A stretch of DNA of 21,869 bases from Candidatus Thorarchaeota archaeon (GTDB taxonomy: Archaea; Asgardarchaeota; Thorarchaeia; Thorarchaeales; Thorarchaeaceae). The notes beneath the pieces are model-generated. The model ran no database searches. It was not told where the DNA came from and worked only from the letters and a program-made list of their open reading frames with translations. The position numbers and the translations under genes are program-made. Positions within the stretch are counted from its first letter, which is position 1, and every line of letters starts with the position of its first letter. Where the stretch lies: assembly GCA_038893995.1 (NCBI GenBank), contig JAWAQK010000042.1, forward strand, positions 1 to 21,869, in the 5' to 3' direction. Positions 3,705-21,869 of this stretch are shown piece by piece.

Positions 3705-5552
3705 TCATCTTTCACTCATGTAGGGGTCCTCTCCACTGTCGATGTCCTTGTAGCCATACTCCGCAAGTATGTCCTCTATTCTCTGTGCATTCGCAGTCCA
3801 CCTCAGGTTCCAGTGCCCATCATCCGTCACTGTGACCTCCACGTCAGGTAGATCTCCCAGTAGGTTGTGGTCAGCCTCGATGACGTCCTGATACGCTCCC
3901 GTGAGGGCTATCAGGAAGTAAGAACCCTGAAGTCTTCTGAGGTTGCCAACAGGAATTCCGACTCCGATCCCTCCATTCGGCATGGTCAGTGGACGATAGT
4001 CGCGCGTGAACCACAGGTCGTCAGCAGGCTTCCTGTAGAACAGGGACGCCTCCCCGTCAGAGTCGCAAGTTATGTCCACCAACCTCACTGTAGTCTCGGG
4101 CCGTACGTGAAGGTCCGTGACTGGGAGTATCGGGAAGTACTGGTTCACAAGGACATGGTCCAGGATGCTGTTGAAGACGGAGAAGTTGCCCACTGCGATG
4201 TAGTCCGGATGCCACAGGCTCTCGACTGTCTTGTCTGGCCAGATGCTGCCGGTCGCCAGTCGTGCCAGCTGCTTCCTTGCCTCTGCCCGGACCTCATTGA
4301 GGATCTGTTCGCTGTCCCGAATCTCTGAGAGAGTGGCTCCAGTGCATGTTCGATTCGTCTGAAACTCAGTCCATGTTTCAGCAATCTCATTGACGGACAT
4401 TGCCTGTCTCAGCCTGGAAACGGAGTTCTCCCTCTCCCTTGACAGTTCCTCGTCAAGCACGTCGCCAGCGGGGGGAAACACAGACCTGACCTCAAGGACC
4501 TTCACCAGTATTGCCGAGCTGAGTGCAGTGATACCACGACCAGACTCAATCATGATATCAGGATGCTCGGATCCGGGGGAGACAGACTGGTGCTCCTCAA
4601 GTACACTCTCCACAATGGCTCTTGCATATGTGTCCATGAGATCTGACGGGTTCGAGCTTGTGTAGTCTATGGGGAGCCCCCCTCCAAAGTCAATTGTGGT
4701 GAGAAGAGGGAACCCCTCCTCTCTGACTTGAGTGTAGGCTCGAAACATGAACCGCGCGAATTTCCTGATGTCCTCGAATGCTGTGACCTGTGAACCAACG
4801 TGCGCCAGTATGGTGCTGACTGAGTCTGCATACCCCCTCTCCTTGAGGTGAGACATCACGTCAAACAGGTCATGGATGCCTAGGCCGAACTTGGAGTCAC
4901 GACCTCCAGAGTGAGACCAGTGCCCTCTCACAGTCAGGTATGGTTTCAGACGCAAGACAATCTGTACAAGGCCTGGTGGCAGCATCTCGGTCACGAGTCT
5001 GGCCTCGTAGAGCGACTCGATGGAAACTGCGACCTCGTGCCCCAGCTCGGCACAGCGCAGGACCAGTTGAAGATACTCCGGGTCCTTCGCCCCATTGCAT
5101 ATGATCAGCCTGTGTTTCTCGTTGGAGGTGACTATCTTGGCCAGGAAGAGCTCTGTCTTGGTCCCGACCTCCAGCCCATAGTCCTTGTCTGAGCCGAGGA
5201 CCGCAAGCACACAGTCCGCTCTCTGGTTTGCCTTGACAGGATAGACCGCCCTGAAGGCGCCTCGATAGTCCTTCTCCTTCATGACGTCTGCAAATGCCTT
5301 TCTGAGCTTCATGATCTGGGACTCGATCAGCTGTGGGAAACGGATCGTGAAGGAAGAAGTGTAAGCAGCCCTGTTGACATTGTTGGAATTGACCGTTTCG
5401 ATGATGTCAACCACTGGAATGGTGTGGCCTCTTATCCGCAGTATCAGTCTCCCTGCTGCATCTATGTCAAGAAAGTGGAGGTCGCTCCTGTCCACTCCGT
5501 AGACAAGCTTCGACCTCTCGATTGTCCATTGGTCTGTACTCACCTTGCTCAC
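3705..5552 (-). CDS. speA: PLP-dependent (fold type III) biosynthetic arginine decarboxylase-like enzyme
   Basis: YPVKANQ (PLP lysine), GLEVGTKTEL, CNGAKD, SKFGL, HVGSQ, DFGGGLPIDY, ESGR, NFSVF..D, DITCDSDG and GAYQD...HNLLGD follow the SpeA motif series. GTG start. Confidence 0.85.
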   Translation of the reverse strand: MSKVSTDQWTIERSKLVYGVDRSDLHFLDIDAAGRLILRIRGHTIPVVDIIETVNSNNVNRAAYTSSFTIRFPQLIESQIMKLRKAFADVMKEKDYRGAFRAVYPVKANQRADCVLAVLGSDKDYGLEVGTKTELFLAKIVTSNEKHRLIICNGAKDPEYLQLVLRCAELGHEVAVSIESLYEARLVTEMLPPGLVQIVLRLKPYLTVRGHWSHSGGRDSKFGLGIHDLFDVMSHLKERGYADSVSTILAHVGSQVTAFEDIRKFARFMFRAYTQVREEGFPLLTTIDFGGGLPIDYTSSNPSDLMDTYARAIVESVLEEHQSVSPGSEHPDIMIESGRGITALSSAILVKVLEVRSVFPPAGDVLDEELSRERENSVSRLRQAMSVNEIAETWTEFQTNRTCTGATLSEIRDSEQILNEVRAEARKQLARLATGSIWPDKTVESLWHPDYIAVGNFSVFNSILDHVLVNQYFPILPVTDLHVRPETTVRLVDITCDSDGEASLFYRKPADDLWFTRDYRPLTMPNGGIGVGIPVGNLRRLQGSYFLIALTGAYQDVIEADHNLLGDLPDVEVTVTDDGHWNLRWTANAQRIEDILAEYGYKDIDSGEDPYMSER

Positions 5553-5573
5553 GCCCAGTGGCAGGCATGTCTC

Positions 5574-7055
5574 CTATTGCTCATCCCCCTTGATGGAGTC
5601 GAGCATGCCCTGGAAGGCCCTTGCCAGCTCGCCGATCTCATCGTCCTTGGAGATGTAGTCAGCATCGACACGCAAGTCTTCGGTGTCCAGTGGTTTGTCC
5701 CTTATTATTGCACTAACGTTCCGCAGGGCAATGTCCATCAGGTACTGCAATGGCTTTGTGACTTGGTTTGCCACGGTCGCTGTGACAATTCCCGCAAGGA
5801 TGACAGCCAATGTGGTGATACTCAGGATGAACAGAATCGACCGTGTGATATTGAGCCGTATCGTGTTCTGCAGTTCAGGTATGGCTGCCAGGACCTCCTC
5901 CATGGGCGCAATTATGATGCAGACATAGCCACCTCTCTCGATGGGGGCGTATGCCATCACCAATTGCTTCCCGTTGCGTGTGTATGTAAACGTCCCCGTA
6001 CCACCGGCAAGCAGCATGTCAAGCTGTTCCTGAGTCAACGCCGACGTCCCGTCTGAGTTCCTCTCGACTTGGGAGAGCGGAGGAAGGCCCGCCACATACT
6101 GCTCGGCCGGGACTTCTCTGTGAGCGATCACGCCCACATACTCACTCGGAGGTGGTCCTGGATCAACCACTCTCTTGACAAGTGCTGCATAGCCTGTCTC
6201 GAGTATGCCGACTCCCAAGATCTTCTGGTTGATGTCCTCTATCGTTATGTCACCGGATATGACCCCAATGAGCGAATTGTTTTCCCTGAAGTATACCGCC
6301 TTGCCGATAGATATCAGTAGTACTCCATCGATCTCGTCGTAGTACGGTTCAACGAAGACGACATCCCCGTTTCCGGCCCTGATTTGCAGGTACCACTCCT
6401 CAAGGTATGGCCTGTAGGGCTCATTGATCCGGTCTGTATCAGTGCCACCTACAATGCTGCCTGGGTAATTGATGAACAGTCCGTCGCGTGCGAAGGCAAG
6501 ATACAGCCATCTGAAATCAGGCATCTGCGCATGTGCCGCCTGGAACATGTAGTCGAGGTTTGATATACGCCCCAGTCTGCCCGCATTTGCGCTCTCATAC
6601 GCTGAGTAGTTGCTCGAGGTGGTGCCCGGAGCATACCAGCTACTGTAATTCCAAGAGATATTTATCCCGTATCTCGCGTCATAGTGAGTGTCCGCCGGTC
6701 TTGGGCCCGCGTACTCGAAAAAGTAGTCGTAGTAGACGGCGCGTGGCTGGTATGTGGAACTGGGGGAAAGAATCCTCTCGCATTCGTAGGCCAGTGCCCG
6801 TATCATGGCTTCCGCATTGGCAAGCTTCTGGTCTATCACCCTGGCATTGTTGACCGCAGTCTGGTTCATGTGTCGCCGTATCTGCGTTTCCAGTGCAGTG
6901 GAGCTCTCTCCAATTGCAGATACACCCATCAGATCCAGAAACTGGAGGGCGATGAACCCTGTCACAGCAACTGAGAGTACTGTGATTACAATGGATGTCG
7001 CGATCACATTGCGCTTGAAACTGCCCTTCTTCCTGGTTTCAGTCAGCGTTGCCAC
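5574..7055 (-). CDS. membrane sensor: TM-dCache_1-TM-HAMP with no C-terminal output domain
   Basis: N-terminal TM; Cache motifs WLYLAF..GLFINYP..Y...EEWY..EPYYD..GVISGDI..GYAALV; second TM; HAMP (KPL...DEIGELARAF) ending about 12 aa later. GGAGGTGA RBS at 7063-7070 overlaps the upstream stop. Confidence 0.88.
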   Translation of the reverse strand: MATLTETRKKGSFKRNVIATSIVITVLSVAVTGFIALQFLDLMGVSAIGESSTALETQIRRHMNQTAVNNARVIDQKLANAEAMIRALAYECERILSPSSTYQPRAVYYDYFFEYAGPRPADTHYDARYGINISWNYSSWYAPGTTSSNYSAYESANAGRLGRISNLDYMFQAAHAQMPDFRWLYLAFARDGLFINYPGSIVGGTDTDRINEPYRPYLEEWYLQIRAGNGDVVFVEPYYDEIDGVLLISIGKAVYFRENNSLIGVISGDITIEDINQKILGVGILETGYAALVKRVVDPGPPPSEYVGVIAHREVPAEQYVAGLPPLSQVERNSDGTSALTQEQLDMLLAGGTGTFTYTRNGKQLVMAYAPIERGGYVCIIIAPMEEVLAAIPELQNTIRLNITRSILFILSITTLAVILAGIVTATVANQVTKPLQYLMDIALRNVSAIIRDKPLDTEDLRVDADYISKDDEIGELARAFQGMLDSIKGDEQ

Positions 7056-7069
7056 TCGTCTTTCACCTC

Positions 7070-9934
7070 CTAGTACTCCACCGTGCTCCCGCCCACCTCG
7101 AGCTGGGCCATCATTACTGCCACTTGTTCGAATGCCTTCTGCACATCACGTCTGACATTGGTGCTGTCTACAACAGAGAGGTACTGGCCCTGAGGCACAT
7201 TGTTGCACAGATACTGTAGTAGATCCTCAGTGGTCATTATCTGTCCAGTCACCGGTGATCTCAGGGACTTGGCCCCTGCTGCAGCAGGAAGCTTGAGCTC
7301 ATTACCCACACCTATGACTATCAGGTTTACATCAAGGTGGTTGTCCCTGATATATCCCTCGATGGTGAGAGGTTTCTTCTTCTTCATCCTGTCCTTCTCC
7401 CTCACGATGCCCTTGAGAAGATCCAACGAGTAGGTCTTGGAGCTGTTGTCTTGGCCATCGGTCAGGGCAATGACCCACCTATGCTCACTGCTTGGGATCC
7501 TGTCGAGTGACTCAAGAGCCTTCCCGAGGGCATCGTAGAAAGCTGTAGCGCCGCTCGGATGTCGTAGTGTGTCGAGAGTCCTGAGTATGTTGCTCTCATT
7601 GTCTCGTTCGAACTCTCCTCTCCGGGTCAGTGGAAGGACCTCAGTATACGCATCGTTGAACACTATGACAGACACATCGTCCTGTGGATTGACGTGACTC
7701 CTCACGATCTCCTTTGCGCCCATCACGGCCGCCCTGATACGGTCCTGTGCCTGCATGCTTCCCGAGTAGTCTATGACAAATATCACGCTCTTCTTGAACT
7801 GGGCAGACCGGCGAAGTCTCTCAGCCCTCCGACGTACATCGTGGCTAGACTTGTCCAACTGGTCTAACACATCTGCAAGCTTGCTCAGGGCATAGACCTG
7901 TAACCAGTTGTCCTGGGTCAGCTCAGACAACCGGACAGCCTCCTCGAAGGCTACCTCCGCCTTCTGCCACTGCTTCTGGGTCTCATAGAGTTCGCCTTTG
8001 TGATACTGAATGTATGCCAGCGTGCGTTCTGCGTTCTGGCGCAATGCTATTCTCTCAGCCTCCTCGAATCTCGAGAGAGCCTGGCTGATGCGGTTCTGTC
8101 TGAGCATCACCAGACCCATTGCATCAAATCTCTTGGCCAGACCAAGCTCGTTCTTCAGGGTCCTGTCAATGGCCTCAGCCTCCTCGAGATGCTTCATTGC
8201 AGTATCGAACTCGCCACGGTCCATCGACACGAGTGCCATGTTGTGATAGATCGACCCTATGCGCTGAAGTGCATCTGACTCATCCTTTCCTCCCTCCTTA
8301 GATCGTTCCAACATTGCTTTTGCAATCTCCAGAGAACGGTTGTAGTGATCTGTTGCCGTACGAGTGTCTCCACGCTGTCTGTAGACGTTGCCGATGTTCA
8401 ACAGCATGGTCTGTATGCCCTCCTCTATCGCAAGACGACGACTTATCTCCAGTAGGTTCTCATAGTTCGCGAGTGCCCTTCGAAGGTCTCCCCTGATGAA
8501 GGACTGGTTGCCGTATCTGCAGGCCTCTTGGAAGCTCAACAGTGCGTCGATGGTTGTGCCTATCTCCTCGTACATGGCACCTGACATGCTCATGCTGCGG
8601 GTGAAGTCCTGAGTCGACATCTTCTGGACGAGTTTCGTCATCTCTCGAACAGGCTGTACAACCGCCTTTCCCTTCGCATAGGCAACCCCAGTCACTACGG
8701 CTGCAACTGACGCCAGGACACCTATCAGAATGAGAGTGAGTATGAGCGTCTGGCTGACAATGGCGTTCAACATTGCTATCGCCGGTGCCACTACCTCTGA
8801 CGCTGGTACGACTACGGCAAGCAGGAAATCGACATTTGGTATCACGGCATAGGTCATGTACCACAGCTTTCCATTCTTGTAATACTGGGCCTGACCTCTC
8901 CCTTCCTCAAGTGCAGTGCTGATTATCGTCTTGAATGCATTTGCCTCCGAACTCGTCGGTGATGAGAACTCGAGATCGTACACAGTCTGTCCCTCGGCTG
9001 TAAAGAGGGGATGTGCCACCAGTTCGGAGTTCCTCTCCATCAGAAATGCATAGCCGCTGTTGAGTATCTTCACGTCAAGGACACTCTGCAGGATTGTTTC
9101 GAGCGTCACATCCGCGGATACGACCCCGAAGACTGTTCCATTATCGAAACGTATGGGACGCGCCATAGATATGACCAGTCCGGTCGAGGGGTCGAGATAG
9201 GGCCCGGTGAAGGCTATGCTCTCGTTACCGAAGGCAATTGCGTTTGTATACCACTCCTCGTTCGGGGGGTCGTAGTCTTCTGCAGGCGTATCGCCCAAGA
9301 AGTATGAGAGTCTGTCGTAAGGATAGTTGCGAAACAGGTGGCTGTCGCAGTACGATGGGTCAAAGGCCATGTAGAGCCAGATGTAGTCAGTACTCATCTC
9401 GTGGAGTGCCCTGTACATGTTATCCATGTTGGACGACACCTCAATGAAGTACCTTGTACTGGGACTCCAGTCAAAGGGGTCGCCAGGGGTCTTGTAGTAG
9501 GGTCTGGGCATGTAGTAGCAGCTGACCTCAAACGAGATGTCGCTCGAGTCATATCTCTCCACGTAGTGTCTACCTGGAACCAGCATTCCTGTTTGAGCGA
9601 ACTCCAGTTCCCAGTCCCAGAAGTAAGAGTGTTGAGGGGTGGCCAGGATACGGGCGTTGAAGAGGTCTTCTGCATACCTCTCCATCATGTAGACCCCATC
9701 AATGTAGTTCTGAATCTTCTCCTGTATGAAGATTGCCGTGTCGTTGGCCAATCTCTCTAGATCTGCGAGCTCCTCATTTCTCAGTGCATCTGATGCAAGA
9801 AGTGCACTCTCATTGGAGGCATCTGTTATGGTGATAACAGAGATTGCGGATATTGCCAGAATCGGTATCAGTGACACCAGGACAAACGTCACGACGATTC
9901 TCTTGCTGATTTCCAATTGGTCCATCTCTCCCAT
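7070..9934 (-). CDS. membrane receptor: TM-dCache_1-TM-HAMP-TPR repeats-VWA
   Basis: Cache motifs YDPPNEEWY/GPYLD/GVVSADV/SGYAFL..LVAHP; TM2; HAMP (QPVREM..EEIG); about 5-6 TPR-like repeats (NIGNVY, HNMALV, DAMGLV, YHKGELY); C-terminal VWA with intact MIDAS (D722YSGS, GATAFYDAL, ALTDG). Confidence 0.88.
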   Translation of the reverse strand: MGEMDQLEISKRIVVTFVLVSLIPILAISAISVITITDASNESALLASDALRNEELADLERLANDTAIFIQEKIQNYIDGVYMMERYAEDLFNARILATPQHSYFWDWELEFAQTGMLVPGRHYVERYDSSDISFEVSCYYMPRPYYKTPGDPFDWSPSTRYFIEVSSNMDNMYRALHEMSTDYIWLYMAFDPSYCDSHLFRNYPYDRLSYFLGDTPAEDYDPPNEEWYTNAIAFGNESIAFTGPYLDPSTGLVISMARPIRFDNGTVFGVVSADVTLETILQSVLDVKILNSGYAFLMERNSELVAHPLFTAEGQTVYDLEFSSPTSSEANAFKTIISTALEEGRGQAQYYKNGKLWYMTYAVIPNVDFLLAVVVPASEVVAPAIAMLNAIVSQTLILTLILIGVLASVAAVVTGVAYAKGKAVVQPVREMTKLVQKMSTQDFTRSMSMSGAMYEEIGTTIDALLSFQEACRYGNQSFIRGDLRRALANYENLLEISRRLAIEEGIQTMLLNIGNVYRQRGDTRTATDHYNRSLEIAKAMLERSKEGGKDESDALQRIGSIYHNMALVSMDRGEFDTAMKHLEEAEAIDRTLKNELGLAKRFDAMGLVMLRQNRISQALSRFEEAERIALRQNAERTLAYIQYHKGELYETQKQWQKAEVAFEEAVRLSELTQDNWLQVYALSKLADVLDQLDKSSHDVRRRAERLRRSAQFKKSVIFVIDYSGSMQAQDRIRAAVMGAKEIVRSHVNPQDDVSVIVFNDAYTEVLPLTRRGEFERDNESNILRTLDTLRHPSGATAFYDALGKALESLDRIPSSEHRWVIALTDGQDNSSKTYSLDLLKGIVREKDRMKKKKPLTIEGYIRDNHLDVNLIVIGVGNELKLPAAAGAKSLRSPVTGQIMTTEDLLQYLCNNVPQGQYLSVVDSTNVRRDVQKAFEQVAVMMAQLEVGGSTVEY

Positions 9935-9951: not shown

Positions 9952-11400
9952 TTAGACTGTAAGAGCGACCAGCTCCTGTTCAAGGCGTCTCACAAACTCC
10001 TCACGGTTCTGTCTGTCGTCCAGTTCGAAAGTATTCTCAGAGAGTGTTCCTCGGACGGCCTCCTCTCCCAGCAGTATGATCAGAGTCCTTCTGAGTATCT
10101 CTCGAGGCACACCTGTCTGTTGTTCAAGCTTGAGTATCTCTACTGTCCGCCGGTTGCGTAGGAGATCTGTCAAGACGCGCCTGACCTGCTGGATCTCTGA
10201 CACGGTGGGCCCGAGCTTATCGATGGGCCTTGTCTTGGGTGTTCTGATGAATGTATTGCCCTCTATGTGACCGTCCAAAGCCCTGATCTGAATCATCTTC
10301 TGCAGTGTTCGTCTCAGGTTGTAGGGAACAGGCCTAGGTAATGTCCGCCTGAGAATCCTGTCGAGGTCTTTGAGTTCAATCCGACTGTGCTTTGAGGTTA
10401 TCGAGTCGATACTCTCCCTGAGGTACTGCTCTACTGCGTATTCACTCAGCATCTCAAGTACTGCTCCGCATGACTCACACCTGGGGCTCTCTGGAGTAGT
10501 AGGGGCGCCACAGTTACCACACTTGATGGCCCTCCTGTAGAGGATCTGCTTGGTTGACATGATCTCGTTCAACACGACTCTCTCTGTCTTCGTGGGCTGG
10601 TCAGTATCGTGGACAGTCCAAAATGACAGTCTGCGATCGCTAGTAGCCACTACGACGTACGCCAAGTCCGAGACATTGTTGGGAGTACCTGTTGCTACGG
10701 CCCTAGGCCTGTCGCGGAGCTGGACGGTGCCAACAGCTCTTCCTTCTAGGTCCCATATCTTGAGCACACTGGAGTCATCGCCCGTGATGAGAAGTTTCCT
10801 ATCACCGAATGTAAGTACAGCGAAGACTGTCAGTCTGTCTCCGAGTCTGAACTCGCGTAGTTTGTAGCCAGCTGTGCTCACCACTGTCACAAGGCCTTTC
10901 CTGTCAGCCACAATGACCTCCAGCTCACCATCATCAGGAGTCATATCCTCTAGCCAGACATCAGCCACAGGGTCCTGCATGCTCCTGCTGAAGAGTGCAG
11001 TCCTATCATCATTCCACAGAATCACCCGTCGATTATCGAGCGCAACAGCGACCTCTGCTGACCCGTCTCCGTCGACATCACGTGCGTCACATGCTATCAC
11101 GTCGCTCTCCAGTGCAATACTCCAGACTGTCCTTCCCCGCTGATCCACGACAAGCACATTCTTGCCGATTCCTCCCACGAGGGCATCGCTTCCGTTACCC
11201 TCAATGTCAGCGACTGCAATGCATCTTACTCGGCTGCTGTATCTCTTGGAGGTCTTGAGATTCCCTGACACATCATATACGCTGAGTTGGTCGGCGTAGT
11301 CGAGAGCAAATACCTGTGCATATCCATCGGGGCGTTGCCTCAAGTAGACTGAGTACCCCTCGGCTGAAAGTGGTACATTAGCGACTTCCCGCAGCTTCAA
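9952..11400 (-). CDS. cytoplasmic beta-propeller (FG-GAP/BBS2-like DxDGDG blades) + C4 Zn-ribbon + two PCI-like winged-helix domains
   Basis: Repeated blades ADIEGNG, RDVDGDG, EDMTPDDG and WD-like LKIWD/LSFW; CGNC-x10-CESC; two helix-helix-wing segments ending LDGHIEGNTFI and VRGTLSENTFEL. TTG start, no signal peptide. Confidence 0.75.
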   Translation of the reverse strand: MKLREVANVPLSAEGYSVYLRQRPDGYAQVFALDYADQLSVYDVSGNLKTSKRYSSRVRCIAVADIEGNGSDALVGGIGKNVLVVDQRGRTVWSIALESDVIACDARDVDGDGSAEVAVALDNRRVILWNDDRTALFSRSMQDPVADVWLEDMTPDDGELEVIVADRKGLVTVVSTAGYKLREFRLGDRLTVFAVLTFGDRKLLITGDDSSVLKIWDLEGRAVGTVQLRDRPRAVATGTPNNVSDLAYVVVATSDRRLSFWTVHDTDQPTKTERVVLNEIMSTKQILYRRAIKCGNCGAPTTPESPRCESCGAVLEMLSEYAVEQYLRESIDSITSKHSRIELKDLDRILRRTLPRPVPYNLRRTLQKMIQIRALDGHIEGNTFIRTPKTRPIDKLGPTVSEIQQVRRVLTDLLRNRRTVEILKLEQQTGVPREILRRTLIILLGEEAVRGTLSENTFELDDRQNREEFVRRLEQELVALTV

Positions 11401-13273: not shown

Positions 13274-14200
13274 GTGGTAGACCAGTTGTCCCCGTCTGAG
13301 GTGGAAGACAAGATAATCTCTATCGAAGAGGCGGCAAAGAAGATCCCTGACGGTGCTCACCTGTTCTGGGGAGGATTTGGTTACCAGAGGCCGCCGATCG
13401 CCTTTGCCTCCGAACTCGTCCGACAGAAGAAGAGGAATCTCACTATCTATACTTGTGGGTCAGAGGTGGACCTCGAGATCATGGCAGCCACTGGTGTTGC
13501 CACTCGATTCGAGATAGCGTTTGTTGCAATAGAGGCACTGGGACTGGCCAACAACATGCGTCGTCGCGTGGCGGAAGGGAAGGTTCAGGTCGAAGAGTAT
13601 AGCAATCTCGCAATGGCAATGCGGTTTCTCGGCGGCGCACTAAACGTTCCATTCATGCCAATCAGGAGTCTCATGGGCACGGATATTGCAAACAAGTCCA
13701 GATACAGAGGCGACAAGAAGCTGAAGATCATTGATTGTCCCTTCACAGGAGAGAAGATCTGCCTCGTTCCCTCCGTCCGGCCCGACTACAGCATAGTGCA
13801 TGTGCAGCGTGTCGATGCGATGGGCAATGCACAGATCGACGGGATCGTCGGGGAGGACATTGAGGGTTCACGGTGCGGAAAGAAGCTGATAGTCATGGCA
13901 GAGGAACTGATAGGCACGGAGGAGGTCCGTCACCATCCTGATCAGACAAAGATCCCGTCGATGTACGTGGACCATGTTGTCATACTGCCATTTGCCTCGC
14001 ATCCTATGCAGGTTCACAACTACTACGATTATGACCTCCCCCATCTCATGATGTTCCACAACATGACCAAGACCGAGGAAGGTTGGGAGGAGTACCTCAA
14101 CAGGTACATTCTCGGTGTTCAGGATCATCTTGAGTATCTTAACACGCTGGGTTGGGAGAACCTCAATCGACTGAGAGCAAAGAAACCCTGGGGGTACTAG
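13274..14200 (+). CDS. family I CoA-transferase subunit A (glutaconate/3-oxoadipate CoA-transferase-like)
   Basis: EEAAKKIPDG, GGF..RPP, EEYSN..RF.GGA..VPFMP, DCPFTGEKICLVP, HVQRVDAMGN and YDYD motifs. Confidence 0.9.
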   Translation: MVDQLSPSEVEDKIISIEEAAKKIPDGAHLFWGGFGYQRPPIAFASELVRQKKRNLTIYTCGSEVDLEIMAATGVATRFEIAFVAIEALGLANNMRRRVAEGKVQVEEYSNLAMAMRFLGGALNVPFMPIRSLMGTDIANKSRYRGDKKLKIIDCPFTGEKICLVPSVRPDYSIVHVQRVDAMGNAQIDGIVGEDIEGSRCGKKLIVMAEELIGTEEVRHHPDQTKIPSMYVDHVVILPFASHPMQVHNYYDYDLPHLMMFHNMTKTEEGWEEYLNRYILGVQDHLEYLNTLGWENLNRLRAKKPWGY

Positions 14201-14211
14201 GAGGAGTCACA

Positions 14212-14985
14212 ATGGCCAAGTATAGCAAGATCGAATTTCTCGTCGCCTGTGCCTCTCGTCACGTTCGGGATGGTGAGAATGTATTTGGAGGCACGGGAAT
14301 GCCCCTTCTGGCAGCGCTGCTTGCCAAGGAAACACACGCACCGAGGGCCAATCTGATCTCGGAGGCAGGATTCATAGATGCCCGGCCGAGGAATGTACCT
14401 CTGTCAGTTGCAGATTCCAGATACTACTACGGCTGCTCCGCCTCGATAGGTCTCATAGAAACTCTGGGTTTCATCCTGCAGGCAGGTCGGATTGATGTCG
14501 GCTTCCTCGGAGCCGCACAGATCGATGAGTATGGCAATATCAACACCACATACATAGGACCCTTTGAGAGTCCAAAGGTGAAATTGCCAGGGAGTGGTGG
14601 CGGCAACGATATCGCATCCAGTGCCAAGCGGCTGATTATCATGATGACTCACGAGAAACGTAAGTTCGTCAAGCAACTCGACTATCTCACCAGTCCGGGT
14701 CATCTGCAGGGTCCTGGGTCACGAAAGAAGTGGTCGCTTGTCGGGGGAGGACCCGATGTGGTCATAACAGATATGTGTCAGATGGACTTTGATCCCGTCA
14801 CATTGAGGATACGTCTAATGTCAGTCCATCCAGGCTATACCGTCGATGATGTGCTCGACAACGTGATGTTCGACCTCATCGTACCCGACAAGGTTCCCAC
14901 AACACCAGAACCAACCCAGGAACAGATCGAGATAATGCACAAGCTAGACCCGCATGGTGTGTATCTTGGGAAGGGCGGAGAATGA
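14212..14985 (+). CDS. family I CoA-transferase subunit B
   Basis: True start is probably ATG 14212 after a GAGGAG RBS. Motifs GTGMP, LISEAG (catalytic Glu position), FLGAAQIDEYGNIN, LPGSGGGNDI and SVHPG. Confidence 0.9.
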   Translation: MAKYSKIEFLVACASRHVRDGENVFGGTGMPLLAALLAKETHAPRANLISEAGFIDARPRNVPLSVADSRYYYGCSASIGLIETLGFILQAGRIDVGFLGAAQIDEYGNINTTYIGPFESPKVKLPGSGGGNDIASSAKRLIIMMTHEKRKFVKQLDYLTSPGHLQGPGSRKKWSLVGGGPDVVITDMCQMDFDPVTLRIRLMSVHPGYTVDDVLDNVMFDLIVPDKVPTTPEPTQEQIEIMHKLDPHGVYLGKGGE

Positions 14986-14992
14986 AACAGGG

Positions 14993-15742
14993 TTGAGTGA
15001 GTTGAGGTCATCTCTACACGACTACAGGGCCGTCGTATTCGACCTTGACAACACCCTGACTGACACAAAGCGATATCCGGTGAGAGCATGCAAGTGGCTC
15101 CTCTCAGAGGCGGGTGTCGATCCAGACCGAGACATTGAACCATTCCTTTCAATCCTGGTCAGAGAGTACTTCAAGGGTCTTGAGAAGGTGGTCACGGGGG
15201 GGCCCTACAGGGATCCATATGCAATTGTACGTACTGCAATGGGGAATGCATCTCGCGAGTTCGGTCTCAATGTGGACGAGTGTGTCCTGGATGAAGCAAC
15301 GATGCTCTTCAGGGCCCTCCATGTTGAGGTCCCCGAACTGAGAGATGGTGTTCGTCAGATACTGACAACGCTCCGCGGATATGGGGTCAGACTGGGTGTT
15401 GTGACGAACTCATTTGAGGGACACATCCGCCCCATATTGAGTCGCATCAAGATCATCGACCTCTTTGACGCCATAGTCGACCCAAGCATGGTTCGAGCAT
15501 ACAAGCCAATGCCTCAGCCATTTGAATCTGTGATGGCGATTCTCGGCACACGACCACCAGACACGCTCTACATCGGCGATGAGTTCTACGCTGACGTCGT
15601 CGGCGCGAAGAGACTGGGCATTGATGTAGTATGGTTGAATCACAGGGGTCAGAGTCTGGATCAACATCTCGAGAAACATGGTCCGGAGTACAGACCTTCA
15701 CTTGTGGTGTCTGAGATGGTCGAACTACTGAAGCTGCTCTAG
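14993..15742 (+). CDS. HAD superfamily hydrolase (subfamily IA)
   Basis: Motif I FDLDNTL, motif II VVTN, motif III KP, motif IV IGDEFYADVVGA. In-frame TTG at 14993 chosen to avoid overlap with the upstream gene; start uncertain. Confidence 0.9.
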   Translation: MSELRSSLHDYRAVVFDLDNTLTDTKRYPVRACKWLLSEAGVDPDRDIEPFLSILVREYFKGLEKVVTGGPYRDPYAIVRTAMGNASREFGLNVDECVLDEATMLFRALHVEVPELRDGVRQILTTLRGYGVRLGVVTNSFEGHIRPILSRIKIIDLFDAIVDPSMVRAYKPMPQPFESVMAILGTRPPDTLYIGDEFYADVVGAKRLGIDVVWLNHRGQSLDQHLEKHGPEYRPSLVVSEMVELLKLL

Positions 15743-15799
15743 GACTCGTACCAGACACACATATTAGCAAATCCGAAAGCTCAATACACTCCAGAGAGA

Positions 15800-16276
15800 A
15801 TGCACCCATGGAGATGTGCCTTGTTGAACCAAGAGGGACGAGGTCGGAGTCCGGCCGATGTGCGGTCGGATCTTGTTGGCATAATTCGCGGCAGCTCTAG
15901 CATTACCGAGATGATCGTGAATCTGATAGAGAACGAGTTGAGAGATCTAAGGGAGGGCGATGCTGCTGAGAGAGTAAGGGGTGCTCTCTCAGTTGCTGCA
16001 AGAGAGGCTGGAGTAACGGACTCGACTAGAGACGCCGTCTTGGCCTGGCTCACCAAGACGACTCCAGACGTCAGACAGACAATTCTAGTTCAGACAATCG
16101 AGACCCTCCTCGGCGATGATAAAATACGACCCGATATCCTGCGAGCATTGGAACAAGTGGCGTCAAAGGAGAGTGTCACGATGGTGATGGACTGGGTCAA
16201 TCGGGGGATACTGACTCTCAGCCAGGGCGTCTACGTCCTGCTGTTCCCCGAGTCCTCGGTTGTTGCTACTGACTGA
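15800..16276 (+). CDS. hypothetical alpha-helical protein
   Basis: 158-aa ORF co-oriented with its neighbours, with an amphipathic helical pattern and no recognised motif; the start may lie slightly downstream. Confidence 0.65.
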   Translation: MHPWRCALLNQEGRGRSPADVRSDLVGIIRGSSSITEMIVNLIENELRDLREGDAAERVRGALSVAAREAGVTDSTRDAVLAWLTKTTPDVRQTILVQTIETLLGDDKIRPDILRALEQVASKESVTMVMDWVNRGILTLSQGVYVLLFPESSVVATD

Positions 16277-16510
16277 ACCAGCTCCCCTGTATGTCACGAC
16301 ATTCAGAATCCGCGTGGATATTTGGCAATGGCTTCTCTGCAGCAGACTGATGCAGGCGTAGGGTTTGCCTGTAGTGAACAGTCGATCTCCCTGAGATGAA
16401 TTGATGCTAGTATTCCTGTCCGGATCATTACAAGCTTTGATAAAACCAGAGCGGTTCTCAGCAGGTATTTACTTGCAGTTTGAGTAACCTTCCTCTACAG
16501 TCCGTGGAAT

Positions 16511-16526
16511 CACCATTATATGGGTG
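16511..16526 (+). promoter_or_regulatory. candidate TATA box embedded in a short inverted repeat
   Basis: CACCATTATATGGGTG: TTATAT about 37-42 nt upstream of the 16558 start, flanked by CCAT/ATGG. Confidence 0.4.
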
Positions 16527-16557
16527 GTTATCATAGCAACTGGTTGGAGACTGTTCC

Positions 16558-17790
16558 GTGTTCGACAGCACAAGACATCTGTGCATATTGATGATCGTGG
16601 TCCTTGTGGTCATCATTCCTCAGGAGGCTTCAGCACAGACCCGCGGGCCACCGACCGAGACGCCAATGCCTCCGAGTCCGGTGAGTCCTCCGATCGGCTA
16701 CGCCAGGGACGATGGCATGTTCCTGATTCGGACCAATGTGATGACAGTACTGGCAGTCCCCGAAGTACCTCAGTTCCACTTCTGGTTCACCAGTGATGAC
16801 GGTGCTTCCGCAAATTTCTCACTGCTGTTTCGATCGATCATTGAGTTCGAGGACCTAAATGGAGATGGAGTCTATCAGTCCAACGAGACTGTTCATACTG
16901 CACACCTGTCAGCCTACGAGTGGGCACTGCAGACAGGTCTTGTCGTTGTGAACGATGTTACCGTGGAGGTCTGGCTCAAGTACACAAAGGGAGGTGTAGG
17001 GGTTCATCCCTCTGCGGAGGTTGATTCTCCAGATGTCGGCTCCACTCCAGAATCGGTCTCGTGGTTCAGGAACACGACAATTCAGATCTGGGCACATGTG
17101 TACTCATACGACTACTATGGAAACTTCTCTGACGGTAGCGAGTTGGTTTCTTACTCGGTAAGACACGGGTCGGAACTGAAGATGGACATTGTTGTGAGCA
17201 ACTTTCCGTTCAGTTCTCCCTCATCCATGGCTGTCATCCAGATGCTGTTGCGCGAGGACATGGCGACAGGCCCACATGCTGATTGGAGACACAGATACGT
17301 TACACGTGAGAGGAATCGAAACAATACTGGAGTATCGTGGAAAGACTGGAATCAGAGTGAAGGAAATGAGACCAGGTTCGAGCCTAGAAACGAAACTCAC
17401 ACACAACGGATTGACATTGAAGACACAGGGTCGTCAACCGTACAGGGATTCGTCAGCTGGCTTGACAGAGCTTTGATCACACTGCCTGGGGGTTTGAGAG
17501 AGGTGGTGGAAGTCGGAGCGTCATATGTCCCAGTAGGAACTGGACTTGCGATAAACATATGTTACCCTAACTTCGACGGAGGCACCCTTGTCAACGACCC
17601 GTCACTTGGACTGTACGAGGATGCTGCTCCGTCTCCTGTTCGGCCGCCAGTCGATACGACGGTCGTACTCCTCGTTGCGACGGTCTGCATAGTCGTACTG
17701 GGACTGGGGACCAAGTGGCACAGATCACGTCGCTGGGGGTCTGACCTGACGTTATCAAGACACACTATACATGTTCTGGACTGGTGCTGA
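16558..17790 (+). CDS. secreted, C-terminally membrane-anchored surface (glyco)protein
   Basis: Signal peptide (hydrophobic core, ASA|Q), Pro-rich linker, DLNGDG Ca-binding-like loop, many N-x-S/T sequons, beta-rich body, C-terminal TM followed by basic residues. Confidence 0.8.
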   Translation: MFDSTRHLCILMIVVLVVIIPQEASAQTRGPPTETPMPPSPVSPPIGYARDDGMFLIRTNVMTVLAVPEVPQFHFWFTSDDGASANFSLLFRSIIEFEDLNGDGVYQSNETVHTAHLSAYEWALQTGLVVVNDVTVEVWLKYTKGGVGVHPSAEVDSPDVGSTPESVSWFRNTTIQIWAHVYSYDYYGNFSDGSELVSYSVRHGSELKMDIVVSNFPFSSPSSMAVIQMLLREDMATGPHADWRHRYVTRERNRNNTGVSWKDWNQSEGNETRFEPRNETHTQRIDIEDTGSSTVQGFVSWLDRALITLPGGLREVVEVGASYVPVGTGLAINICYPNFDGGTLVNDPSLGLYEDAAPSPVRPPVDTTVVLLVATVCIVVLGLGTKWHRSRRWGSDLTLSRHTIHVLDWC

Positions 17791-17792
17791 GG

Positions 17793-18782
17793 ATGGAATC
17801 CAGGCTATTCATGTGGCTGATCATGACAATGGTCCTGGTGGGCCAGGTCGGCTCGCCTGGCCTGATTCATAGCACATCACAGTACGACGGGCTCTCAGCG
17901 GACCCTGTCCAGATTCGAGCAGTACTCCGAACGGAGGGTCCAGTTTCATTCATTGCCGACTTGACTTTTCACAACACAGGCCCCGATGAGGTGGAAGTCC
18001 TACCTATAAGGATTGACTCGCTCCGTGTGAGTCTGTCGACTGTGGATGTCGGTGATGTCACTGCACATAGTACAGTCACGACTTACAGTCGTTACACCGA
18101 GATCTTGGTGTCTCTATCCGATCGTCTACAGCCAGGGACTTCCGCGAAAGTCCATCTGGAGTTCTCTACCGACGACCTTCAGTCGACTCCTAGGATAGGT
18201 CCTGATGCTGCGCATTACCTATCAGAGTTCGTGTACTATGTACGACCTGCCTGCACCTTCTCGAATTTCACTCTGTACGTGCACCTGCCCATCTCAGCTA
18301 CACTCTCCGAATCTTCTGCAGTCCCAGTATTTCCGGTTCCTACAGGAAACTACACTGACGGAAAGATACTGGTCTTCTACTGGACTTATGACGAGATACT
18401 CATCGGCCAGGAACGTGTCTTCATGGTCAAGTATCAGTATCCGCTCGATTCCTCGGGGGATCTGGTCGTTTCAGGTCTCATCTGGATGATGCTACTACTC
18501 GGGTTTGTCATGGGTGCATTGACGATGCGATATGGTCCAGTAGTCGTGCGTAGCCTCAGGCGAGTTGGTCGCACTCGTTATGTAGGCGTCACTTCGGAGG
18601 AGCAGGAGATCCTTGACATCATTCGGTCAAGGGGTGGCTCATGTCCGCAGAAGGAACTCTATCAAGAGTCTAACATGTCTCAGGCGAGAGTCAGTGTCAT
18701 ACTGAATAACCTCGAGGAGCGAAACCTGGTCAAGAGGTTTCGTGAGGGTCGCGAGAACATAGTGTATCTGATGGAGCAGTGA
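17793..18782 (+). CDS. membrane-anchored winged-helix transcriptional regulator (COG2512-like)
   Basis: Signal/TM, extracellular beta domain, TM, then wHTH (EEQEILDII..GG..PQKEL...MSQARVSVILNNLEERNLVKRFREGREN). ATG 17793 lies 2 nt after the upstream stop; GTG 17784 is an alternative. Confidence 0.85.
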   Translation: MESRLFMWLIMTMVLVGQVGSPGLIHSTSQYDGLSADPVQIRAVLRTEGPVSFIADLTFHNTGPDEVEVLPIRIDSLRVSLSTVDVGDVTAHSTVTTYSRYTEILVSLSDRLQPGTSAKVHLEFSTDDLQSTPRIGPDAAHYLSEFVYYVRPACTFSNFTLYVHLPISATLSESSAVPVFPVPTGNYTDGKILVFYWTYDEILIGQERVFMVKYQYPLDSSGDLVVSGLIWMMLLLGFVMGALTMRYGPVVVRSLRRVGRTRYVGVTSEEQEILDIIRSRGGSCPQKELYQESNMSQARVSVILNNLEERNLVKRFREGRENIVYLMEQ

Positions 18783-18830
18783 TTGGCGTCCCATCAGGCG
18801 ACGTACGACGACGCCTCGGCCAGGGGAATA

Positions 18831-18843
18831 GAAAGGCTTTATA
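18831..18843 (+). promoter_or_regulatory. BRE/TATA promoter of the mutase operon
   Basis: GAAAGGC-TTTATA, followed by a GAGGTGA RBS at 18880-18886 before TTG 18891. Confidence 0.6.
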
Positions 18844-18890
18844 CCAGCTGGGGGAGCACTCCTGTCGATTCGGACCGCCGAGGTGAGCCT

Positions 18891-19292
18891 TTGAGTTCCG
18901 GTAGAAAGATACGAGTCCTCATTGCAAAACCAGGCCTGGATGGTCATGACCGAGGCGCCAAGGTAGTCGCAAGGGCACTTCGTGATGCAGGAATGGAGGT
19001 CATCTACACGGGCCTGAGACAGACTCCTGAGATGATCGTACGCGCAGCTGTTGACGAGGCAGTCGACGTCATAGGTCTGAGCATTCTGAGCGGTGCTCAC
19101 ATGGCACTATTTCCGCGAATAATGGAGCTCCTTCGGCAAGAGAAGGCCGACAATGTTCTGGTCGTTGCGGGTGGTATAATCCCTCAGGACGACATACCTG
19201 AGCTGAAGAAGATAGGTATTGCAGAGGTCTTTGGCCCCGGCACTCCCCTGAACGAGATCGTGGAGTACATCAAGGCACACGTGAAGTTGTAA
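18891..19292 (+). CDS. methylmalonyl-CoA mutase small subunit (cobalamin-binding domain)
   Basis: [14 protein letters not shown] (DxHxxG), [14 protein letters not shown] and FGPGT. Start moved from 18783 to TTG 18891 because of the RBS and promoter. Confidence 0.93.
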
Positions 19293-19314
19293 TACTTCCA
19301 AGAGGACTGAGGAC

Positions 19315-20277
19315 TTGTCGACCAGTGATATCGCCTCTGAAGTATTGGCTGGAAACAGGCGGGCTCTGGCCAGACTCATCTCAATGATCGAGAATGAAGA
19401 GCCTACAGTACAGGACATCCTGAGAAGGCTATACAGACACACCGGCAGGGCCCACATCGTCGGGATAACAGGGCCTCCGGGGTCCGGGAAGAGTTCTATT
19501 GTTGCAATGATGACATCCGAGTTGAGGCGACTGGGCAGGTCCGTGGGAATTGTGTGTGTTGACCCCTCAAGCCCTTTCACTGGCGGCGCGCTACTTGGAG
19601 ACCGCATCAGGATCCAGGAACACAGTCTGGACGATTCCGTGTACATGCGCAGCATGGGCACACGGGGTCATCTTGGAGGCCTCTCCAGGGCCACATCCGA
19701 TGCTGTGCGTGCGATCGATGCCTCTGGCAAGGACATGATCCTTGTTGAAACAGTTGGTGCAGGTCAGTCTGAGGTTGAGGTCATCGAGATTGCCCATACC
19801 GTCATTGTTACTGACGTGCCCAGCAGCGGAGACGATATTCAGGCCATCAAGGCCGGCATCATGGAGATCGCAGATATTTTTGTGGTCAACAAGATGGACT
19901 TGCCAGGTGCGGACAAGAAGGTTGCTGATATCAATGCCATGATAGATCTTGATTCCAGCAGACAGGGGTGGCGCCCACCAGTTCTCCTTACCAATGCACG
20001 TACAGGAGAGGGAATCCCAACCCTGGTGAGTACTGTGGATGCCCACCTGAGATATCTCAGGGAGAGTGGACTGCTCGAGGCAAGGGCCTTGAAGCGTACA
20101 AGGCAGGAGCTTCAGGAGATCATGGAATACAGTCTCACGAGGGAGTTGCTGCATGCCCTCCAGGGCCGCCCAGAATATGAGGATGCCATACGAAAGATAA
20201 GTCGGCGTGAGGATGACCCATATTCGATAGCACAGAGACTGATAGCTGAGTTTCTTGCTGAATATAGTAGGAGGTAG
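19315..20277 (+). CDS. meaB: methylmalonyl-CoA mutase-associated GTPase MeaB/ArgK
   Basis: GITGPPGSGKS P-loop, VDPSSPFTGGALLGDRIR, ETVGAGQSE, IKAGIMEIADIFVVNKMD. Confidence 0.95.
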   Translation: MSTSDIASEVLAGNRRALARLISMIENEEPTVQDILRRLYRHTGRAHIVGITGPPGSGKSSIVAMMTSELRRLGRSVGIVCVDPSSPFTGGALLGDRIRIQEHSLDDSVYMRSMGTRGHLGGLSRATSDAVRAIDASGKDMILVETVGAGQSEVEVIEIAHTVIVTDVPSSGDDIQAIKAGIMEIADIFVVNKMDLPGADKKVADINAMIDLDSSRQGWRPPVLLTNARTGEGIPTLVSTVDAHLRYLRESGLLEARALKRTRQELQEIMEYSLTRELLHALQGRPEYEDAIRKISRREDDPYSIAQRLIAEFLAEYSRR

Positions 20278-20286
20278 TTTCGCTGC

Positions 20287-21869
20287 ATGGTTGACGACAA
20301 GGTCCTGAAGGGGTCCCTCGATGAATGGGAGAACAAACTAGTCGCGCCGACCATTGCCAAGTATCCTGAACGTGAGAGGGAAATGGCGACTATCTCTGGG
20401 GTCCCGGTGAAGCGTCTGTACACTCCTCTCGACTTGACGGACTGGAGTTACATGGACCATCTCGGCTTCCCCGGTATGTATCCGTTCACGAGGGGCGTTC
20501 AGCCGACCATGTATAGGGGACGCTACTGGACCATGCGTCAGTACAGCGGTTTCGGGACCGCAAGAGAAACCAATGAACGCTTCAGGTTCCTCCTACAACA
20601 GGGTCAGACAGGTCTCTCAGTGGCATTCGATCTTCCCACTCAGGTGGGGTATGATTCTGACCATCCGCTTGCACGTGGTGAAGTGGGAAAGGTCGGAGTC
20701 GCTGTATCATCACTCGCCGACATGGAAATGCTCTTCGAGTCGATTCCACTGGACAAGGTCAGCACCTCGATGACCATCAATGCTCCCGCAATCGTTCTTC
20801 TTTCCATGTACGTTGTTCTGGCAGAAAAACAGGGACTGGATCCCTCAGTCCTCCGTGGAACCATCCAGAACGATATACTCAAGGAGTATGCTGCTCGTGG
20901 TACTTACATCTTCCCCCCGGGACCATCCATGCGTCTCATAACTGACATATTCAAGTATTGTTCGCGTAGCATGCCCCTCTGGAACACGATCTCGATAAGT
21001 GGCTATCATATTCGCGAGGCCGGTGCAAATGCCGTTCAGGAGATCGCATTCACGCTGGCCAATGGAATTGCCTACGTTCAGGCAGCAATTGACGCGGGTC
21101 TGGATGTCGATGAGTTTGCCTCCAGGCTGTCGTTCTTCTTCGGATCGCACAGCGATTTCTTCGAGGAGATTGCCAAGTTCAGGGCGGCACGAAGACTGTG
21201 GGCCCGGATAATGCGGGAGCGGTTTGGTGCCAAGGATGAGGACTCGTGGAAACTCCGTTTCCACACGCAGACGGCAGGCTGCACATTGACTGCTCAGCAA
21301 CCAGACAACAACATCGTCAGAGTCACTCTACAGGCCCTTCAGGCCGTGCTTGGTGGCACCCAGTCTCTGCATACCAACTCACGTGACGAGGCATTGTCGT
21401 TGCCAACTTCTGAGTCGGTGCAGATAGCACTCAGGACTCAACAGATAATAGCGTATGAGACAGGAGTGGCGGACACAGTAGACCCACTTGCAGGGTCATA
21501 CTACCTCGAGACGCTCACAAACTCCCTCGAAGCCAGGGCAATGAGATACATCGAGGAGATTGACAAGATGGGTGGCGCAGTTGTCGCCATAGAGCGCGGG
21601 TTCATACAGAAAGAGATCGCCGACGCTGCGTACGAATACCAACGATCTGTAGATCAGGGACGAAGGACAATAGTCGGGGTGAACCGTTTCACCACAGATG
21701 AGACCCGTCGGATTGACTACATGCGGGTCAACCCTGAATGCGAGAGAGAGCAGGTCCAACGGCTGACCCGGCTGAGAGAAACTCGAGATAACATTGAGGT
21801 GAAGGCCCAACTGGAGCGGCTGAGAGAGGTCGCATGTGGCAATGACCACCTAGTCCCAGTCGTCATGGA
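20287..21869 (+). CDS. methylmalonyl-CoA mutase large (substrate-binding) subunit; 3'-partial
   Basis: Absent from the ORF track because there is no stop in the window. Hand translation from ATG 20287: MVDDKVLKG...[12 protein letters not shown]...[10 protein letters not shown]...[14 protein letters not shown]...[17 protein letters not shown]...[12 protein letters not shown]...[14 protein letters not shown]. Confidence 0.95.

Follow-up and report, generated by a model that had tools for sequence, protein, structure and literature searches.

The stretch analysed here, called the window throughout, comprises the 21,869 nucleotides of contig JAWAQK010000042.1 (assembly GCA_038893995.1) from a member of the Candidatus Thorarchaeota, an Asgard archaeon whose sequenced genome amounts to 2.3 Mb and is 91% complete. 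On its minus strand, four close-set genes follow one another with gaps of 17, 14 and 21 nt and encode, in order, a β-propeller/Zn-ribbon protein, two membrane receptors, referred to here as A and B, and a protein similar to the arginine decarboxylase SpeA (Table 1). A and B are the sole dCache_1 genes in the source genome. By alignment, both carry Glu at the position of the Arg with which dCache_1 amino-acid sensors contact the ligand carboxylate, and both keep the contacts to the amino group. A first-pass annotation of the same DNA had pointed out these residues and predicted that A and B are agmatine or polyamine sensors; the residues and motif positions that it listed for the two proteins proved exact on translation.

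Table 1. Positions in the window of the receptor genes, their pocket residues and the neighbouring genes.
Feature	Position	Strand	Remarks
β-Propeller, Zn-ribbon and C-terminal helical protein	9952-11400	minus	Ends 17 nt upstream of A; Pfam
Receptor A, 954 aa	7070-9934	minus	Translation, Pfam
A, dCache domain as modelled, residues 40-400	8735-9817	minus	AlphaFold2 model, predicted local distance difference test score (pLDDT) 89.2, predicted template modelling score 0.81
A, extra segment, residues ~95-180	~9400-9700		Confidently modelled
A, motif core Y221-D-P-P-N-E226-E227-W228-Y229	9248-9274	minus	E226 at PctA R126 position; block pLDDT 94
A, Y246-L-D248	9191-9199	minus	PctA Y144 and D146 (amino-group contacts); phmmer alignment
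A, P249	~9190		PctA A147 position
A, D275	9110-9112	minus	PctA D173, key amino-group contact; phmmer alignment
Receptor B, 493 aa	5574-7055	minus	Translation, Pfam
B, motif core Y214-R-P-Y-L-E219-E220-W221-Y222	6390-6416	minus	E219 at PctA R126 position
B, Y238-Y-D240	6336-6344	minus	Equivalents of amino-group contacts; translation
B, E241	~6333		PctA A147 position
B, D269	6249-6251	minus	Equivalent of PctA D173; translation
SpeA-like decarboxylase, 615 aa, dependent on pyridoxal 5'-phosphate (PLP)	3705-5552	minus	Starts 21 nt downstream of B
Two CoA-transferase subunits, HAD hydrolase, MarR/DUF7343 regulator, methylmalonyl-CoA mutase set	13274-21867	plus	Mutase set: B12-binding subunit, MeaB, large subunit

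Receptor A consists of a first transmembrane segment, an extracytoplasmic dCache_1 domain, a second transmembrane segment, a HAMP-like linker, TPR repeats and a VWA domain, an architecture common to more than 130 Asgard homologue clusters. B runs from a first transmembrane segment through dCache_1, a second transmembrane segment and HAMP to its C-terminal end. Pfam matches were dCache_1 (58 bits), TPR_12 and VWA_2 in A, and dCache_1 (47 bits) and HAMP in B, with both dCache_1 scores passing the gathering score of PF02743 (45 bits); no enzymatic output domain was found in A or B by Pfam scan. Because hydrophobic segments flank each Cache domain, as read from the translations, both domains are taken to face outwards.

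For structural comparison, the dCache domains of A and B were modelled with AlphaFold2 from 27-sequence alignments, the model of B reaching a pLDDT of 86.5. When these models were searched with Foldseek against solved dCache structures, both returned matches at probability 1.00, the best being PctA, Mlp24/Mlp37, CtaA and PscC, and those at the top for A being Mlp37, PctA and Mlp24. The two domains as modelled span 361–371 residues as against ~240–250 in solved PctA-type domains and are thus ~100–120 residues longer. An extra segment in A contains invariant aromatic and Cys residues, with the consensus ISFDVSCYYMPR. It was also noted that the top PDB sequence match of the A profile is the eukaryotic protein CACHD1 (8s7c/9eq6; expectation value (E) 2.7e-18), and that alpha2delta-1 entries match too. 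CACHD1 and alpha2delta-1 likewise join VWA and dCache domains; both domains are extracellular there, whereas the VWA domain of A follows the second transmembrane segment on the cytoplasmic side.

For assignment of the pocket residues, A and B were aligned with PDB sequences by phmmer. The stretches YDPPNEEWY...GPYLD...VVSAD of A fell on YDPRSRPWY...EPYVD...VVGGD of PctA (E 2e-12), gap-free in the motif core, and B aligned in like manner with YDPRKRPWY of Mlp24. In PctA, Y121, R126 and W128 contact the ligand carboxylate, and Y144 and D173 contact the amino group (PMC8915833). On this alignment, and not on spacing alone, Glu is at the R126 position in both paralogues, in agreement with the Arg-to-Glu swap proposed in the first-pass annotation. 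In the model of A, E226 directly precedes a short helix, as R126 precedes the PWYKDAV stretch of PctA. The alignment, read with the known roles of the PctA contacts, indicates that E226 and E219 replace the carboxylate-binding Arg, leaving the amino-group half of the pocket intact.

Conservation of the exchange was then examined among 27 A and 28 B orthologues from Thorarchaeota that are 40–80% identical; of 36 genomes sampled from the family of the source genome, 27 have an orthologous A-B pair. The R126-equivalent residue is Glu in 24 of the 27 A sequences and Gln in 2, and Glu or Asp in 24 of the 28 B sequences, with Gln in 3 and Asn in 1. The amine-binding positions, which had been described as kept, are kept across the orthologues as well: the Tyr/Asp/Asp triad is invariant in all 28 B sequences, and in A the Asp is found in 27 of 27 and the Tyr position is Tyr in 24 and Phe in 2. 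The residue after the conserved acid varies freely (E, D, G, T, S, I, N, A, P, F or Y). The 'EEW' put forward earlier as a motif is therefore too narrow, only its first acid being conserved, and the conserved signature, as read from these alignments, is [E/D]-x-W-Y.

A HMMER scan of 1.8 billion cluster representatives returned 3360 homologues. Among the best 150 of these, the R126 column holds Arg in 110 and Glu or Asp in 28, and every named cluster of the acid type is Asgard (Thor-, Hod-/Heimdall- and Sigynarchaeum). An acid retained to this extent in divergent orthologues, beside an invariant triad and with Arg predominant in the nearest homologues, goes beyond a chance pattern. Many Arg-type relatives share the dCache-TPR-VWA length class of ~900 aa. 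Between the Arg-type and acid-type groups, the second most discriminating column is the one immediately following D146 (PctA A147): 81 Arg-type sequences have Ala there, whereas acid-type sequences, A and B among them, have Pro or Glu. Since this column changes along with the Arg column, two positions of the carboxylate subsite have been remodelled. The column comparison of the two groups revealed no basic residue that is peculiar to the acid group and could replace the Arg; R259 and K252 were considered as compensating residues in the pocket and rejected, Lys or Arg being equally frequent there in Arg-type relatives.

Solved SpeA structures match the SpeA-like protein (P0004) along its entire length (E 1e-53), and, like the biosynthetic SpeA enzymes of E. 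coli, V. vulnificus (3N2O) and C. jejuni (3NZP), it contains the PLP lysine and the catalytic Cys motif (DITCDSDG). It differs from them in belonging to an archaeal host, where the pyruvoyl arginine decarboxylase PdaD is usual. PdaD was not found in the source genome, and the SpeA-like gene is the only Orn_Arg_deC_N gene there. TiaS is present, and one gene of the arginase/agmatinase family lies elsewhere in the genome. Archaeal TiaS modifies tRNA-Ile with agmatine. In a check of 11 Asgard genomes, the source genome counted, 7 with a SpeA-like gene of ~600 aa gave no PdaD match (the source genome, G009, G025, G112, G118, G135 and G161), and the 4 with PdaD (G187, G191, G250 and G329) had just short LysA/ODC-like genes of ~400–450 aa. 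As the sole Orn_Arg_deC_N gene product in a cell with TiaS and no PdaD, and with SpeA-like and PdaD genes complementary, the SpeA-like protein is probably the arginine decarboxylase of the source cell and its housekeeping source of agmatine. The same distribution suggests non-orthologous replacement of PdaD by the SpeA-like enzyme in the Thor/Heimdall-group lineages with the receptor cassette.

To follow the receptor genes across species, a profile search was carried out over the phylum; matches were obtained in 121 of 400 genomes, and 34 further loci were then fetched. The order propeller-A-B-speA is kept in ~25 Thorarchaeota genomes, and an A-B pair lies near a SpeA-like gene in four further Asgard families, which makes five families in all. 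This retention, with the packing of receptors and SpeA-like gene 14–21 nt apart, bears out the earlier statement that the decarboxylase is co-operonic. The arrangement varies among speA-linked families, the genes being co-directional, divergent or ~6 kb apart. Both A and B carry Glu in family f21 (Heimdall/Hodarchaeales), where speA is adjacent and divergent, and in f5, where its orientation differs between genera (divergent in one, co-directional in another). In f29 both receptors carry the canonical Arg, PdaD is present, the propeller gene lies downstream, and no SpeA-like gene was found either near the pairs or elsewhere in the genome. That the neighbourhood has been kept through at least three arrangements speaks in favour of a functional link between receptors and enzyme.

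Some further observations were made on these neighbourhoods. The propeller/Zn-ribbon gene accompanies A-B in most lineages, even where speA is lacking (L086, L087 and L089–L093; f29, f9 and f30), and there lies downstream of B. As it stays with A-B in the absence of speA, the conserved core unit is A, B and the propeller protein, with speA an add-on in one clade. At one Thorarchaeota locus (L060, G001:C7), the SpeA-like gene stands beside a fragment of B (residues 353–473) with no A, which looks like a decayed cassette, and six further genomes have a SpeA-like gene with neither A nor B nearby. In the window, B and speA are in one frame across the TAG of B (5553–5576), and a read-through fusion was considered; it was rejected, as a common frame occurs at 9 of 33 loci, which is the chance level. 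The plus-strand genes at the other end of the window have no connection to the receptor finding.

Taken together, A and B would be dCache_1 sensors descended from a PctA-type amino-acid sensor, in which the amino-group side of the pocket, made up of Tyr, Asp and Asp, is unchanged. With Arg changed to Glu or Asp and A147 to Pro or Glu, the pocket would reject an α-carboxylate and favour a primary amine that has none. Compounds of the class to which the product of the neighbouring SpeA-like enzyme belongs, agmatine or a short di- or polyamine, would be the likeliest ligands. Through HAMP, TPR and VWA docking domains and the propeller protein, the pair would probably report the level of an outside amine to the cytoplasm without a kinase, so that the supply of amine (agmatine or polyamine) would be coupled to its synthesis; this direction and target of signalling are what we infer. 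A ligand of the class of primary amines lacking an α-carboxylate, with agmatine or a short diamine or polyamine favoured, is given about an even chance. The agmatine/polyamine interpretation of the first-pass annotation is reasonable, though supported only in part, and still predicts rather than establishes a ligand.

A more far-reaching version, in which the window encodes a synthase-plus-receptor cassette, is quite unlikely. According to it, the SpeA-like enzyme would make agmatine or a derived polyamine for release, an A/B heteromer would sense the amine outside the cell, and a kinase-free relay formed by the TPR-VWA docking domains and the propeller/Zn-ribbon protein would pass the signal on. 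The system would then be a third independent conversion of an amino-acid sensor to an amine sensor, serving autocrine or quorum-like signalling.

A number of observations, at the pocket, the enzyme and the linkage between them, weigh against amine sensing tied to the decarboxylase. At the pocket, the E226 and E219 side chains would face the ligand, but their orientation is taken from homology only, and Y221 and W228, the remaining carboxylate contacts, are still conserved. The latter would be expected if A and B still bound an amino acid, for instance the substrate arginine or another basic one, whose carboxylate would be held by Y221 and W228, and whose guanidinium or amine side chain would be contacted by the acid, or the acid would be protonated or metal-bridged. 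By sequence and fold, every one of the closest solved relatives binds amino acids, among them Mlp24, Mlp37 and PctB in complex with Arg, and sensing the substrate of the adjacent enzyme makes regulatory sense. In dCache_1AA structures, however, the ligand does not direct its side chain at R126, and the A147 position changes together with the Arg. Moreover, the R126A exchange alone lowers the affinity of PctA 61-fold (PMC8915833), and a negative charge at this position should repel a carboxylate still more. Retained amino-acid binding is therefore judged highly doubtful.

As for the enzyme, the SpeA-like protein did not reach the NCBIfam equivalog cut-offs (350 bits against 369 for NF003763 and 326 against 624 for TIGR01273), which also sets it apart from biosynthetic SpeA. 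Furthermore, the sensors face outside while the enzyme is cytoplasmic, so that the logic of their coupling is not evident. The linkage of acid and enzyme is also incomplete in several families. With speA downstream, A has Gln, Phe or Tyr in f23 (Heimdall group), where B has Glu or Asp, and Gln, Ser or Glu in f14, where B has Glu. In f12 (Hermodarchaeota), A has Trp or Phe and B has Gln, with the SpeA-like gene ~6 kb off behind two opposite-strand genes; a joint loss of acid and speA was considered for this family and discarded because of that gene, which lies ~6 kb upstream of A in G161. One f21 (Heimdall-group) genome has a second pair, in which A is of the Arg type and B has Asp, and speA is not nearby. 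Finally, f9 and f30 genomes have PdaD and no SpeA-like gene, despite an acidic B (Asp or Glu) with an intact triad. The first-pass annotation had held that the same motif, if general in Asgard Cache proteins unlinked to decarboxylases, would refute its prediction, and this is so in part: acidic B with an intact triad occurs away from a decarboxylase in three settings (f9, f30 and the second f21 pair).

In f9 and f30, the triad of A is clearly degenerate (L/G/Q/E), from which it follows that this receptor family can lose ligand binding. One may then ask whether A and B bind any free ligand at all, or whether the Glu folds back onto Y221 and W228 and gives, together with the triad, a site that is closed and self-occupied or that senses cations or pH; dimerization or scaffolding would then be the main role of the domains. 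That neither receptor has an enzymatic output would fit this explanation. The triad is nevertheless invariant in both paralogues of the speA-linked clade over deep divergence, which argues for a working site and makes the absence of a ligand very improbable.

The co-occurrence of the motif with speA across genomes had been proposed as a check, and was examined at all loci where B could be judged. With speA adjacent, B was acidic at 35 loci and non-acidic at 3; with speA not adjacent, the counts were 4 and 2. Although these raw counts look strong, correlated evolution of acid and speA adjacency was rejected as statistical support, since an independent-contrast test gave 3 contrasts, 0 of them informative, and had no power. 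In a tree of 110 Cache domains, the speA-linked A sequences all fall in one clade and the speA-linked B sequences all in another. The linkage to speA thus goes back to a single event, after which the neighbourhood was long kept through at least three gene arrangements; it is retained synteny and not repeated co-evolution, and as such it gives no independent tie between the acidic residue and the enzyme. The check on co-occurrence accordingly lends the prediction no independent support.

A single-clade link of this kind is also what would be seen if the pockets bound another cationic or neutral amine with no relation to the decarboxylase product, for example ammonium, a methylamine, an amino sugar, or ethanolamine or some other amino alcohol, with the link to speA reflecting shared regulation or history. 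An intact triad with an added acid suits small primary amines of any kind, the ligands of dCache_1AM domains range from primary to quaternary small amines (PMC10589655), and the acidic B of genomes with PdaD and without a SpeA-like gene points the same way. On the other side, adjacency to the SpeA-like gene has outlived at least three gene arrangements in five families, and A and B are the only two dCache_1 sensors of the genome. Another amine is consequently regarded as unlikely, if still a serious prospect, and agmatine or a short di- or polyamine is preferred as the ligand.

Ligand prediction from few pocket residues is a main bottleneck in microbial signal transduction, and to our knowledge the Cache motifs decoded so far are few (those for amino acids, amines and purines). 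If the preferred reading is true, replacement of the Arg by an acid, with the rest of the amino-acid motif intact, would amount to a new and simple sequence-level rule, for which Arg-type relatives of equal architecture in sister lineages provide natural controls. It supplies a concrete ligand hypothesis for A and B, the only Cache sensors that this Thorarchaeota genome has, and one that can be tested by isothermal titration calorimetry and point mutants. It would also tie an unusual, kinase-free Asgard receptor architecture to the metabolism of agmatine, which is needed for the agmatidine modification of tRNA-Ile, and of polyamines. The cassette version, if true, would mean that the archaea most closely related to eukaryotes use amines for autocrine or quorum-like signalling.

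Among known systems, the dCache_1AA sensors (PctA/PctB/PctC, Mlp24/Mlp37, CtaA and Tlp3; Gumerov et al. 2022, PMC8915833) give the best sequence and structure matches. They share with A and B the fold, the block Y-D-P-x-x-[R]-x-W-Y, Y-x-D and D with equal spacing, and identical amino-group contacts. Of the residues by which the class is recognized, Arg at 126 is replaced in A (E226) and in B (E219), aromatic residues stand at 121 and 128 (Y221 and W228 in A, Y214 and W221 in B; aromatic in nearly all orthologues), and the equivalents of Y144 and D173, with D146, are all present (Y246, D248 and D275 in A; Y238, D240 and D269 in B). A and B differ further in the change of A147 to Pro or Glu, in an insertion of ~100 residues, and, in A, in the loss of the structural R124. 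Their outputs are TPR-VWA or HAMP alone, and not a methyl-accepting chemotaxis protein, kinase or cyclase.

The dCache_1AM amine sensors (PctD, PacA, McpX and M. mazei 3LIB; Cerna-Vargas et al. 2023) arose from dCache_1AA via loss of the Arg, form a single branch, and have been reported in archaea for Halobacteriota only (PMC10589655). A and B resemble them in dCache_1AA origin with the Arg lost, in the aromatic pair (W128/Y129 equivalents), in the Ser/Thr strand position and in the final Asp. Transferred via the PctA alignment and the equivalences in that paper, the shared core of PctD (F188/Y189, M215/S217 and D235) corresponds to W228/Y229, V254/S256 and D275 of A. However, AM domains lose Y121 too and, in 3LI8, the D146 equivalent, whereas A and B keep both and gain an acid; AM domains also rely on a cation-π aromatic (W155 in PctD) and an upstream insertion with an Arg-Asp pair (R103-D133). 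As matches to A, PctD and McpX fall far behind PctA (E 0.03 with PctD (7psg) against 2e-12 with PctA). The best AM-type match of B is 3LI8 (E 1e-7), but B keeps the D146 that is absent from 3LI8.

The best functional analogy is offered by TlpQ and McpU of Pseudomonas (PDB 6FU4 and 6F9G), in which an equivalent Tyr/Asp/Asp triad holds the primary amine of histamine or putrescine in a strongly acidic pocket, Glu170 of TlpQ binding the other nitrogen (PMC6234866). These proteins are without the YDPRxRPWY block (PMC6974571), whereas A and B retain YDP...WY with an acid at the former Arg position. Neither 6FU4 nor 6F9G appeared in single-sequence or profile PDB searches with A up to E 10, which sets A apart from this cluster. 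The retained block, the lack of detectable relatedness and the acid at the Arg position point to an origin of A and B independent of TlpQ/McpU. Full-text literature searches (dCache with agmatine, Asgard with dCache, Thorarchaeota with arginine decarboxylase) yielded no description of the variant or the operon, and this Arg-to-acid variant of the amino-acid Cache pocket is hitherto undescribed. A and B fall outside dCache_1AA, are not demonstrably dCache_1AM and do not belong to the TlpQ/McpU cluster; they are best described as a separate variant derived from an amino-acid sensor and, by analogy, as putative amine sensors.

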